Below are positions 13,264 through 15,322 of a stretch of DNA of 32,000 nt, piece by piece (position 1 is the first letter of the stretch; every line of letters starts with the position of its first letter). The stretch lies in the NCBI RefSeq assembly GCF_000010625.1, contig NC_010296.1:2400001-2432000 (forward strand). The letters run 5' to 3'. Below the pieces are notes generated by a model. That model was not told where the DNA came from and did no database searches. It worked only from the letters and a program-made list of their open reading frames with translations. The position numbers and the translations under genes were made by a program. The DNA comes from Microcystis aeruginosa NIES-843. GTDB taxonomy: Bacteria > Cyanobacteriota > Cyanobacteriia > Cyanobacteriales > Microcystaceae.

Positions 13264-13401
13264 TGGCAGAGATAGTTATACTAAATCCGTTGAGTATAGG
13301 CTACATATCAGGAGAGGCAATAGATAATCAGTTTTTAATAACCAGATTTAGGATTAAAATAAAATTATTGTACTATCATTACTCCCAGGGATGTTACCAA
13401 A

Positions 13402-13809
13402 ATGTCTAACGAAACCGTTACTTATAGTCTTGAATCCGTCCTCAAGGAAATCAAAGACAGCATCAAGGAAGTTAACCAAAAAATCGATACCTTCCAACAG
13501 GATGTTAACCAGAAATTTGACAGCCTACAGAAGGATTTTAACCAGAAATTTGACAGCCTACAGAAAGATGTTAACCAGAAATTTGACAGCCTACAGAAGG
13601 ATTTTAACCAGAAATTTGACAAAATCGACGAACGGCTAACTAAGCTAGAGGTAGGACAGGCAAAACTAACTGAGAAAGTCGATGGGATGGATAGAAGACT
13701 AGAAAAGCTGGAAGGAACCCAAAAAAATCAAGTTTGGACGTTAATTATTCTTTTAGGAGGGGCCATCGGCACGGCAGCGTGGCGCTCTTTCTTTTCTGGT
13801 AATCCTTAG
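13402..13809 (+). CDS. Tail-anchored coiled-coil protein, paralog 1 (135 aa, 5 repeat units); possibly XhlA-like
   Basis: MSNETVTYSLESVLKEIKDS, then 11-aa units (QKDFNQKFDSL type), then IDERLTKLEVGQAKLTEKVDGMDRRLEKLEGTQKNQ, then the C-terminal TM VWTLIILLGGAIGTAAWRSFF. The layout recalls the hemolysin XhlA family (PF10779) but was not verified. Confidence 0.8.
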   Translation: MSNETVTYSLESVLKEIKDSIKEVNQKIDTFQQDVNQKFDSLQKDFNQKFDSLQKDVNQKFDSLQKDFNQKFDKIDERLTKLEVGQAKLTEKVDGMDRRLEKLEGTQKNQVWTLIILLGGAIGTAAWRSFFSGNP

Positions 13810-13914
13810 AAATATTGCCATAATACTAAATGCTAGGTAATCAGTCTTTAATAACCGGATTTAGGATTAAAATAAAATTATTGTACTATCATTACTCCCA
13901 GGGATTTTACCAAA

Positions 13915-14226
13915 ATGTCTAACGAAACCGTTACTTATAGTCTTGAATCTGTCCTCAAGGAAATCAAAGACAGCCTACAGAAAGATGTTAACCAGAAATT
14001 TGACAGCCTACAGAAGGATTTTAACCAGAAATTTGACAAAATCGACGAACGGCTAACTAAGCTAGAGGTAGGACAGGCAAAACTAACTGAGAAAGTCGAT
14101 GGGATGGATAGAAGACTAGAAAAGGTGGAAGGAACCCAAAAAAATCAAGTTTGGACGTTAATTATTCTTTTAGGAGGGGCCATCGGCACGGCAGCGTGGC
14201 GCTCTTTCTTTTCTGGTAATCCTTAG
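13915..14226 (+). CDS. Tail-anchored coiled-coil protein, paralog 2 (103 aa, 2 repeat units)
   Basis: Same N-terminus, C-terminal coiled coil and TM anchor as paralog 1. The repeat region is reduced to LQKDVNQKFDS-LQKDFNQKFDK. Confidence 0.8.
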   Translation: MSNETVTYSLESVLKEIKDSLQKDVNQKFDSLQKDFNQKFDKIDERLTKLEVGQAKLTEKVDGMDRRLEKVEGTQKNQVWTLIILLGGAIGTAAWRSFFSGNP

Positions 14227-14331
14227 AAATATTGCCATAATACTAAATGCTAGGTAATCAGTCTTTAATAACCGGATTTAGGATTAAAATAAAATTATTG
14301 TACTATCATTACTCCCAGGGATTTTACCAAA

Positions 14332-14772
14332 ATGTCTAACGAAACCGTTACTTATAGTCTTGAATCCGTCCTCAAGGAAATCAAAGACAGCATCAAGGAA
14401 GTTAACCAAAAAATCGATACCTTCCAACAGGATGTTAACCAGAAATTTGACAGCCTACAGAAGGATTTTAACCAGAAATTTGATACCTTGCAACAGGATT
14501 TTAACCAGAAATTTGACAGCCTACAGAAGGATTTTAACCAGAAATTTGACAGCCTACAGAAGGATTTTAACCAGAAATTTGAGAAAATCGACGAACGGCT
14601 AACTAAGCTAGAGGTGGGACAGGCAAAACTAACTGAGAAAGTCGATGGGATGGATAGAAGACTAGAAAAGGTGGAAGGAACCCAAAAAAATCAAGTTTGG
14701 ACGTTAATTATTCTTTTAGGAGGGGCCATCGGCACGGCAGCGTGGCGCTCTTTCTTTTCTGGCAATCCTTAG
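14332..14772 (+). CDS. Tail-anchored coiled-coil protein, paralog 3 (146 aa, 6 repeat units)
   Basis: Same architecture. This is the longest repeat tract: IKEVNQKIDT-FQQDVNQKFDS-LQKDFNQKFDT-LQQDFNQKFDS-LQKDFNQKFDS-LQKDFNQKFEK. Confidence 0.8.
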   Translation: MSNETVTYSLESVLKEIKDSIKEVNQKIDTFQQDVNQKFDSLQKDFNQKFDTLQQDFNQKFDSLQKDFNQKFDSLQKDFNQKFEKIDERLTKLEVGQAKLTEKVDGMDRRLEKVEGTQKNQVWTLIILLGGAIGTAAWRSFFSGNP

Positions 14773-14877
14773 AAATATTGCCATAATACTAAATGCTAGG
14801 TAATCAGTCTTTAATAACCGGATTTAGGATTAAGATAAAATTATTGTACTATCATTACTCCCAGGGATGTTACCAAA

Positions 14878-15219
14878 ATGTCTAACGAAACCGTTACTTA
14901 TAGTCTTGAATCCGTCCTCAAGGAAATCAAAGACAGCATCAAGGAAGTTAACCAAAAAATCGATACCTTCCAACAGGATGTTAACCAGAAATTTGACAGC
15001 CTACAGAAGGATTTTAACCAGAAATTTGATAAAATCGACGAACGGCTAACTAAGCTAGAGGTAGGACAGGCAAAACTAACTGAGAAAGTCGATGGGATGG
15101 ATAGAAGACTAGAAAAGGTGGAAGGAACCCAAAAAAATCAAGTTTGGACGTTAATTATTCTTTTAGGAGGAGCGATCGGCACAGCAGCGTGGCGCTCTTT
15201 CTTTTCTGGCAATCCTTAG
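14878..15219 (+). CDS. Tail-anchored coiled-coil protein, paralog 4 (113 aa, 3 repeat units)
   Basis: Same architecture with 3 units. The sequence after its stop diverges from the array unit after about 15 nt, marking the array end. Confidence 0.8.
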   Translation: MSNETVTYSLESVLKEIKDSIKEVNQKIDTFQQDVNQKFDSLQKDFNQKFDKIDERLTKLEVGQAKLTEKVDGMDRRLEKVEGTQKNQVWTLIILLGGAIGTAAWRSFFSGNP

Positions 15220-15322
15220 AAATATTACTATAATTTCTCACTTTAGGGTAGTTATGAGGGGAAATTAGCAGATGTGAAACTCAGGTTAAAAATAAGGGAT
15301 ATTTAACCCATCCTACCCCTAA

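Follow-up and report, generated by a model that had tools for sequence, protein, structure and literature searches.

A tandem array of tail-anchored coiled-coil genes with stalks of graded length in Microcystis aeruginosa NIES-843 and its resemblance to phage XhlA proteins

Four consecutive forward-strand genes of Microcystis aeruginosa NIES-843 encode tail-anchored coiled-coil proteins that share both ends and differ in the length of the stalk between them. The genes lie in a 32,000-nucleotide stretch of the chromosome (NC_010296.1, positions 2,400,001 to 2,432,000; referred to here as the window, within which all positions are counted), and an initial annotation had described them as a locus for membrane-anchored rods of 135, 103, 146 and 113 amino acids (aa). 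The open reading frame (ORF) coordinates bear out four tandem genes of these sizes. The locus is not a singular feature: it is one of many arrays in a large family of cyanobacterial proteins, whose members resemble the phage protein XhlA. The structural and evolutionary description of the array given below is, in our judgement, highly probable. The overall best explanation, a compromise between this description and a more doubtful role in membrane complexes of the XhlA type, has a probability of about 0.45.

Results

The four genes differ in the number of 33-nucleotide repeats

All four copies begin with the same 20 residues (MSNETVTYSLESVLKEIKDS) and end with the same 25 residues (VWTLIILLGGAIGTAAWRSFFSGNP), and genes 1 to 4 carry 5, 2, 6 and 3 hendecad units of the type KD(V/F)NQKFDSLQ between these ends. 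All 11-aa units were counted by hand on the translations, which confirmed the repeat counts of the initial annotation. Tandem Repeats Finder detected the 33-nt repeats in genes 1-3 plus a higher-order repeat of 417 nt; the three units of gene 4 were taken from its translation. The C-terminal coiled coil, described as the same in every copy, is nearly so: the last 59 residues are common to all four copies except for one L/V position in this coil, which reads EKLEG in copy 1 and EKVEG in copies 2-4. Similarly, the lengths generally differ by 11-aa units, but copy 2 falls short of copy 4 by 10 aa, with a 30-nt recombinant junction (GACAG/C, encoding KDS/LQK, the slash marking the join) that connects codon 20 in frame to the ...DSLQK portion of a repeat. 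Alternative ORFs are present within the units (47 aa on the minus strand and 60-82 aa in the +2 frame); these antisense and alternative-frame ORFs were taken to be by-products of the repeats, and the selection pattern favours the annotated frame.

Each gene had been assigned its own 105-bp leader. Each of the three inter-gene spacers does measure exactly 105 bp, but the leader of gene 1 is homologous to them over only ~78 nt before the ATG. The unit 1 leader is divergent only in its first ~27 nt, which we take to mark the boundary of the array. When each spacer and the gene that follows it were compared as a unit, units 2-4 showed 97.8-98.6% identity over alignable positions, and unit 1 showed 93.5-94.5% identity to them.

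The gene 1 leader contains overlapping TAAAAT hexamers at 13355-13365 and an AGGGA Shine-Dalgarno-like element at 13387-13391. TAAAAT also lies at 13868-13878, 14285-14295 and 14831-14841, ahead of genes 2, 3 and 4. Diverged loci of the family keep AGGAG or AGGGA ~10 nt before the ATG and TAAAAT ~40-55 nt before it, and the conservation of TAAAAT and AGGAG-like elements suggests that most copies may have their own promoter and ribosome-binding site. Genes in arrays with spacers of 44-53 bp must be co-transcribed. A terminator scan found no site between copies, and a generic sigma-70 scan returned 7 sites vs. 5.6 expected, which is not above chance. A structured leader RNA was rejected because shuffled controls fold more stably than the 105-bp spacer (z = +1.7), and an Rfam search of 13000-15600 gave no match at E <= 1.

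A hendecad stalk leads into a heptad coil and a membrane anchor

Proteins of the family share the same order of elements: an N-terminal cap (xETVTYSLESVL), a hendecad stalk, a heptad coil, an invariant juxtamembrane TQKNQVW motif with the transmembrane (TM) helix, and an 8-residue tail ending in GNP (...FFSGNP in the array copies). The conserved heptad coiled coil of the C-terminal module (C-module) is LEVGQAKLTEKVDGMDRRLEKVEG. The array proteins have no signal peptide by sequence, and a TM helix near the C-terminus was found both in the sequence and in an AlphaFold2 (AF2) model of the monomer, built from an 18-sequence alignment. The model has helices at residues 10-101 and 108-131 with a break at 102-107 (EGTQKNQ), which, together with the absent signal peptide, supports the tail-anchored architecture claimed for these proteins; its predicted local distance difference test (pLDDT) score is 85-91 over residues 11-60 and low toward the membrane end of the stalk. 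Because a signal peptide is absent and K/R residues are in excess before the TM helix (3 in the preceding 15 residues vs. 1 after), we infer an N-in orientation.

The hydrophobic periodicity of the repeats was 3.65 residues per turn in copies 1 and 3 and 3.62-3.68 in copies 2 and 4 by Fourier analysis, and that of the C-terminal coil was 3.51. The value of 3.65 fits 11/3 and that of 3.51 fits 7/2; therefore, the stalk is hendecad-based and the anchor-proximal coil heptad-based, as expected from the hendecad register originally assigned to the repeats. The stalk repeats place F/V, F and L at positions a, e and h, and consecutive units are 11 residues apart in 443 of 453 cases across the family. 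The helical soluble part is predicted to be ~14, 9, 16 and 11 nm long for genes 1-4, so that a set of rods of graded length (roughly 9, 11, 14 and 16 nm) is supported.

Apolipoproteins share the 11-residue periodicity, which raises the alternative that the proteins are stress proteins of the apolipoprotein, LEA or perilipin kind, whose 11-mer amphipathic helices would lie flat on a membrane or lipid-droplet surface with the TM helix serving only as an anchor; a larger repeat number would then cover more surface. Weak matches to Pfam Apolipoprotein (16-37 bits), to apoA-IV in a PDB sequence search (E = 7e-4) and to the NCBIfam sll1863 stress-protein family (23.7 bits vs. a cutoff of 35) point in this direction, although the Apolipoprotein scores are far under the 90-bit cutoff. 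F4, F8 and L11 are, however, confined to a 65-degree arc on an 11/3 helix, a stripe of 3 residues per 11, while the repeat has a net charge of 0 and a HeliQuest D of ~0.5, below the lipid-binding range (0.68). A stripe this narrow, with zero charge and low D, favours a coiled-coil seam over a surface-lying amphipathic helix. In addition, the seam runs in phase into the canonical heptad coil and the TM helix, and Crocosphaera repeats such as SNHKEVNEKID are less hydrophobic still. We consider a lipid-surface function to be quite unlikely. The PDB search returned only generic coiled-coil and apolipoprotein matches (E >= 7e-4), and Foldseek of the AF2 model against BFVD returned 0 matches.

Table 1. 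Positions of the array genes, their leaders and the convergent downstream gene in the window
Feature	Position	Strand	Description
Leader of gene 1	13325-13401	+	Homologous to the final ~78 nt of the 105-bp spacers
Gene 1	13402-13809	+	135 aa: N-terminal cap, 5 hendecad units, C-module, TM helix 13732-13806
Hendecad repeat region of gene 1	13465-13629	+	5 x 33 nt; KDV and KDF variants alternate
Spacer/leader of gene 2	13810-13914	+	105 bp
Gene 2	13915-14226	+	103 aa; 2 hendecad units 13981-14046; TM helix 14149-14223
Spacer/leader of gene 3	14227-14331	+	105 bp; last 100 nt identical to those of the gene 2 spacer
Gene 3	14332-14772	+	146 aa; 6 hendecad units 14395-14592; TM helix 14695-14769
Spacer/leader of gene 4	14773-14877	+	105 bp
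Gene 4	14878-15219	+	113 aa; 3 hendecad units 14941-15039; TM helix 15142-15216
NB-ARC (STAND NTPase) + TPR gene	15323-17872	-	Convergent; own C-terminal TM helix

The array belongs to a large cyanobacterial family

A word-indexed search returned 826 homologs. Most are from Microcystis, and the best 120 of the 826 range from ~76 to 166 aa. The homologs are named 'hypothetical' or 'DUF4164 family' or bear obvious misnomers, and the NCBI name of some relatives is 'hemolysin XhlA family protein'. An exhaustive profile search gave 379 clusters (50% identity) at E <= 1e-3, 80 of which reached E <= 1e-10. Two matches were set aside: the coiled-coil match of P0172, a trimeric autotransporter of 1551 aa, is spurious, and the 275-aa fusion P0129 is a chimeric ORF. 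Relatives are encoded by 146 stretches of GTDB species representatives, which belong to Microcystis, Crocosphaera, Cyanothece and allied unicellular cyanobacteria. The 80 loci that were kept hold 133 family ORFs, and tandem arrays of 2-7 copies are common in them, some with 3-4 copies and one with 7. The complete chromosome of strain BLCC-F210 alone carries at least 19 intact copies at 6 loci. A minimal form of the family has 85 aa.

Named relatives include those of Gloeothece citriformis PCC 7424 and of the filamentous Limnofasciculus baicalensis. The latter has a four-gene array (L087:5020-6937; 120, 120-130, 127 and 138 aa) with repeats of both 7 (KIDKLDE) and 11 residues (KFTDQINKLDA). Identity across genera is 40-50%, with invariant motifs. 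The ratio of non-synonymous to synonymous substitution rates (dN/dS) in the C-module was 0.03-0.26 for pairs without indels, with dS saturated between Microcystis and Crocosphaera; these values point to strong purifying selection on the conserved modules.

Two further occurrences were noted. A 2.5-kb contig (L057) in a metagenome-assembled genome of Crocinitomicaceae (Bacteroidota) bears a typical Microcystis-type four-gene array and is probably mis-binned. In three metagenome contigs (L088-L090, 6001-6285), a 94-aa relative with a clear XhlA match, P0239, sits 24 nt after the last glycosyltransferase gene of a polysaccharide-biosynthesis cluster.

Stalk length is quantised and modules are shuffled

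To express stalk length independently of the repeat sequence, distances between conserved motifs are given. The distance from the Y of TVTYS in the cap to LTEKV was 30 + 11n or 37 + 11n residues in 211 of 221 distinct proteins, and a minor series followed 33 + 11n. When the same Y was paired with TQKNQxW, 229 of 244 distinct proteins (94%) fell into two modulo-11 classes offset by 7, and the distance from LTEKV to TQKNQxW was 17 residues in all 207 of 207. Copy 2 of the NIES-843 array was the sole protein in its cap-to-LTEKV class among the 221 (49 residues, 5 mod 11). The spacing of hydrophobic residues is continuous across its junction (3-4-4-4-3; locally 4-4-4-3, pentadecad-like), and copy 2 may be a recent recombinant.

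The 11-mers of Crocosphaera and Limnofasciculus differ in sequence (SNHKEVNEKID, ETKLDALDNKF and KFTDQINKLDA) and fall into the same distance classes, indicating that stalk expansion by units of 11 arose independently. Quantisation modulo 11 is in part an automatic result of mutation by 33-nt repeats and many of the sequences are interrelated, both of which qualify a structural reading of the distance classes; the independent expansions and the offsets of 3, 4 and 7 are the stronger evidence for a structural constraint.

Shuffling of modules is most evident in a seven-gene array of the BLCC-F210 chromosome (L023:4774-7694), whose genes are separated by 53-bp spacers and have modules mixed behind identical first residues. 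Two cap variants (KEIKDSIKEVNQK and TRIESKIDSLEKR) occur in it, repeat numbers vary, and there are two unrelated anchors (...VENEQYTLVKAISDLQGFRGLIVPIL...LGNNP and ...RVGYQEFTNRGILIALVV...FFPNP). Every anchor type nonetheless consists of a TM helix followed by R/K, a hydrophobic stretch and a C-terminal (G/N/P)NP. Two type IV pilin-like genes lie directly after this array, and pilin-like genes were also seen near family genes in L011, L056 and L083.

No publication was found that ties XhlA, DUF4164 or these accessions to Microcystis or other cyanobacteria, and the literature on cyanobacterial hendecads or tail-anchored thylakoid coiled coils held nothing bearing on the family. Among the titles and abstract openings of the XhlA-family papers listed, there was no cyanobacterial title. 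As far as this literature goes, there is no description of the family's expansion on the chromosome, of its graded-length tandem arrays, of the 7/11 quantisation or of the shuffling of modules; the proteins are already in databases under uninformative names.

Copy number and repeat number vary between strains

The orthologous locus was defined in all strains compared by the same convergent NB-ARC/TPR gene 104 bp downstream of the array; the upstream flank is not the same between strains. At this locus, NIES-843 encodes proteins of 135, 103, 146 and 113 aa, the complete chromosome of BLCC-F210 has a 5′-truncated copy followed by genes for 179, 124, 146 and 102 aa, the complete chromosome of FBCC-A1114 encodes 102 and 113 aa, and LEGE 91341 encodes 157 and 135 aa. 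The four strains have 2-5 copies with 1-9 units, and the cross-strain comparison was therefore positive for variation in both gene number and repeat number. A single protein cluster at 90% identity spans 97-135 aa. Spacer length is uniform within each array (105 bp in NIES-843, 112 bp in BLCC-F210 and 53 bp in the seven-gene array of BLCC-F210).

Ongoing recombination or gene conversion, which had been suggested from the high identity of the units, is borne out in part. Over the last 195 nt, copies 1-3 differ mutually at 1-4 positions and from foreign copies at 5 or more, a sign of partial concerted evolution, but the nearest sequence to copy 4 is the terminal copy of FBCC-A1114, with 2 differences. 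This pattern would be expected if interior copies were homogenised by conversion or unequal exchange while the edge copy escaped. The related proposal of a contingency locus also held only in one respect: repeat and copy numbers are polymorphic among strains, but strict on/off switching is inapplicable because 33-nt units keep the reading frame.

An alternative is that the array is an artefact of assembly, or that it consists of selfish repeats or duplicated pseudogenes without a function. Short-read metagenome contigs do break exactly where the array starts. Four of them with the exact upstream protein (L001-L004) end no more than ~300 nt past the TIGR03492-like gene, and because they stop at the array start, arrays evidently break short-read assemblies and are therefore systematically under-represented in metagenome-assembled genomes. 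Moreover, only one of the four proteins, the 103-aa product of gene 2, had an exact match in the protein collection (BAG02491 / WP_012265759, M. aeruginosa NIES-843), copy 2 has its unique out-of-phase junction, and BLCC-F210 has the 5′-truncated copy. Against these points, all four ORFs are intact, the copies bear copy-specific substitutions, and two independent complete chromosomes carry arrays at the orthologous site. The dN/dS values (0.03-0.26), the conservation at 40-50% identity across genera with invariant motifs, and the conserved translation-initiation elements argue in the same sense. An assembly artefact is unlikely in view of the copy-specific substitutions and the complete chromosomes, and artefact and decay taken together are very improbable.

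XhlA is the one Pfam family matched consistently

XhlA (PF10779) was matched at E <= 1e-3 by 24 of 27 diverse members and was the sole Pfam family common to nearly all of them; precomputed Pfam data assign PF10779 to most relatives. The hidden Markov model (HMM) search thus gave consistent matches, most of them slightly under the threshold; the four array copies scored 32.2, 26.3, 25.8 and 31.7 bits (25.8-32.2 bits) against a gathering threshold of 34.7. A Microcystis paralog with 70% identity, P0005, was above this threshold with 42.1 bits, and the minimal form of 85 aa aligned to positions 2-65 of the 67 in the XhlA profile. The resemblance to XhlA noted in the initial annotation is supported.

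XhlA of PBSX is reported to be a holin-associated and holin-like partner that is needed for lysis (PMC6834076; PMC10630273), and the XhlA-like genes of Enterococcus phages precede holin and endolysin genes. Comparison with an alignment of the latter by hhalign gave a probability of 65% over 25 columns and of 69% over 70 columns, from a shallow alignment of 9 sequences with at least 54% identity. The 65% match covers exactly the 25 cap columns in which the N-terminus of the XhlA-like protein ARAMI_23 of Enterococcus phage Aramis (L091:20499-20777; FVSLKEQLARIEVKLDDI) resembles the cyanobacterial cap (SYSLEDVLKRMDDKLDTI).

Among 50,697 phage genomes, gp29 of the Pseudanabaena phage Pam3 was the sole match (E = 0.01, 33% identity). 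This protein of 70 aa combines the sequence DDRLTKLEV with a coil and has a TM helix at the C-terminus. Its own XhlA match is sub-threshold, and its gene comes directly after the genes for gp27, the lytic enzyme, and gp28, the holin. A relative that carries GQSKLTEKVDGIDKRL and finishes in ...GNP is encoded on one IMG/VR contig. PHROGs gave weak matches to families of unknown function and to one holin family (E 1e-3 to 1e-5), which are not decisive, and NCBIfam gave no match above any cutoff. Long-stalk copies weakly matched coiled-coil regions of ZorA, Leo and LmuB in PADLOC (E 1e-7 to 1e-3). Taken together, these similarities support, but do not prove, the view that the family is a divergent branch of the XhlA kind that is chromosomal and has an extended stalk; genomic context fails to agree with it.

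Genomic context

The window contains ordinary chromosomal genes: menD and genes for CbiG-like, TIGR03492 glycosyltransferase-like, SelO, lysyl-tRNA synthetase, ABC transporter and AAA ATPase proteins; the protein encoded upstream of the array (12088-13263) is an exact match to BAG02489. No phage genes were found within the window, as the initial annotation had stated.

The downstream NB-ARC/TPR gene of NIES-843 has an in-frame TGA at 17741-17743 inside the P-loop (GIKGVG*IGKST). The gene is intact in BLCC-F210, LEGE 91341 and FBCC-A1114, and the NIES-843 version is therefore probably a pseudogene or reflects a sequencing error. This neighbour is limited to loci of the closest subfamily. Its TPR part also contains tandem repeats (15594-16541; 120-nt or 40-aa units, 7.9 copies, 90% identity), and the length of the protein varies by strain (897, 814 and 934 aa). 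Just upstream of it, a 137-aa ORF (17930-18343, minus strand) is conserved at the four orthologous loci; it had no Pfam or PADLOC match and may serve the STAND protein as an adaptor or effector. Elsewhere in the window are a gene for a ParE-like toxin domain protein (19177-19452, plus strand) and two copies of a DUF4277 + DDE transposase gene (1317-2201, minus strand, and 29325-30998, plus strand), one of which is truncated.

Discussion

How the array could arise and what its products could do

The following mechanism would account for the graded array. Unequal recombination between 33-nt repeats would change stalk length in steps of 11 residues, or ~1.65 nm each, and unequal crossing-over between the units of ~420-550 bp would change gene number, while gene conversion would keep the caps, anchors and spacers of one array near-identical. 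Only those length changes would persist in the family that leave the hydrophobic seam in phase (+11, +7 and rarely +3 or +4). The N-terminal rod would be cytoplasmic (N-in, C-out), and the proteins would oligomerise in parallel through the common C-module and TM helix, within either the plasma or the thylakoid membrane, so that copies of one array could co-assemble. The outcome would be nearly straight rods of ~9-16 nm, each holding its conserved N-terminal cap a set distance away from the membrane.

As to function, we tentatively propose that the proteins are XhlA-type components of membrane complexes with control over lysis or membrane integrity, and that they were expanded and diversified in the host in the course of phage-host conflict, with stalk length as the variable under diversifying pressure. 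This role, which we hold with clearly less confidence than the structural description, would rest on XhlA as the only consistent match and on the position of Pam3 gp29 directly after a holin. Signatures of the conflict type are the lineage-specific expansion, the shuffling of caps and anchors within arrays, and the NB-ARC/TPR neighbour at loci of the closest subfamily.

Several observations weigh against this proposal. None of the 80 loci examined has a holin or endolysin neighbour, and clustering of 518 neighbour ORFs from these loci revealed no partner conserved beyond local synteny; the same was true when Crocosphaera loci were clustered separately. The NB-ARC/TPR neighbour is probably a pseudogene in NIES-843. 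All four array copies fall under the Pfam gathering threshold for XhlA, the profile-profile similarity to the bona fide phage XhlA-like group is moderate, and the coiled-coil and TM composition can inflate such scores. Only 1 weak match came from 2.9 million viral contigs. PADLOC-DB 2.0 gave no defence-system membership, the minimal 85-aa form being without any match. Finally, the cap and anchor are under purifying rather than diversifying selection.

In the main rival explanation, the proteins would be structural rulers or tethers, membrane-anchored spacers of a housekeeping type that hold a cytoplasmic partner or a second membrane at defined distances. Thylakoid pairs, thylakoid-plasma membrane contacts and inclusions are candidates, a co-expressed length set would give a graded or adjustable gap, and the relationship to phage XhlA would be merely architectural or ancient. 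Conserved ends with a variable, quantised middle, a hydrophobic seam unbroken from cap to TM helix, strong purifying selection, and the recurrence of graded-length arrays in three distant cyanobacterial lineages all fit such a function. The genes are dispersed among housekeeping genes without phage context, and membrane-anchored hendecad rods are a known device, for example in rotary ATPase peripheral stalks (PMC6131620). However, the loci examined have no conserved neighbour and no known partner, and the restriction to some cyanobacterial lineages means that the family is not a core part of thylakoid architecture. Copy number and lengths vary freely among close strains, which is unusual for a fixed spacer, and the N-terminal 'head' has only ~9 non-helical residues in the AF2 model and therefore lacks a domain to bind with. 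We consider the tether function unlikely, though more probable than the lipid-surface one.

A more speculative combination of the two ideas, which we think improbable, is a previously unrecognised class of tail-anchored 'molecular rulers' in some cyanobacteria, derived from or ancestral to XhlA. Their paralogs, differing by 7- and 11-residue steps, would co-assemble by means of the identical anchor module and form staggered bundles at the plasma or thylakoid membrane, on its cytoplasmic side. The length repertoire would be re-tuned continually as 33-nt repeats recombine, a diversification based on length instead of sequence. Such bundles could intercept or mistime the holin/XhlA lysis complexes of phages, or could set distances between intracellular membranes.

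Significance

If the rods function in the way proposed above, the arrays would provide a natural, ready-made set of membrane-anchored spacers graded by 1.65 nm per step, and an example of a gene family diversified by length with both ends constant. They would also form a large natural data set on the insertions (+11, +7 and +3/+4) that a continuous seam tolerates. Microcystis is known for its conflicts with phages and for its plastic genome, and the family contributes ~20 strain-variable and entirely unstudied genes to each genome. The XhlA/holin link, if real, would be the first functional handle on XhlA-like proteins outside Firmicutes phages.

Comparison with known systems

XhlA of PBSX in Bacillus subtilis and of Enterococcus phages resembles the present family in its small size, its N-terminal coiled coil and its one TM helix near the C-terminus. 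Phage XhlA is encoded by a single gene beside those of holin and endolysin (PMC10630273), whereas the cyanobacterial family is chromosomal, with ~20 genes per genome in tandem arrays. Only the cyanobacterial proteins, and not those of Enterococcus phages, have a hendecad stalk of 0-9 units, the TVTYSLE cap, TQKNQ(V/I)W and the ...GNP end. Pam3 gp29 shares the DDRLTKLEV...RLDKI...LVWLI pattern and the C-terminal TM helix with the C-module; it lacks the hendecad stalk, the TVTYSLE cap and the GNP end, and is set in a lysis cassette.

The peripheral stalks of rotary ATPases (b / E-G) and the stalks of trimeric autotransporter adhesins likewise have an 11-residue periodicity and form membrane-attached rods that are near-straight or have a slight right-handed twist (PMC6131620). 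There is no sequence relationship to the array proteins (NCBIfam ATP synthase B', E = 0.0098, 16 bits vs. a cutoff of 118), and both kinds of stalk differ from them in being anchored at the opposite end, in having fixed lengths and in being encoded by single genes rather than length-variant arrays. The length of the rotary ATPase b subunit reportedly tolerates changes of ~7-14 residues. SNAREs and phage spanins resemble the array proteins in having a coiled coil that runs straight into a TM anchor, and one relative had been automatically named 't-SNARE complex subunit (syntaxin)' by IMG. None of the scanned family members has a Pfam match to SNAREs or spanins, and no fusion partner is evident; spanins, unlike the array proteins, have an N-terminal or lipid anchor and are periplasmic.

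A parallel for the genetic arrangement among cyanobacteria is gvpC, although it encodes an unrelated protein of the gas-vesicle outer surface that has no TM helix and has a 33-residue rather than an 11-residue repeat. Crocosphaera, which has the array family, is not known to have gas vesicles. In the gvpA-gvpC tandem arrays of Planktothrix and Microcystis, the gvpC products differ by whole 33-residue repeats; recombination generates this variation in length, which is polymorphic among strains and serves to tune a physical property.

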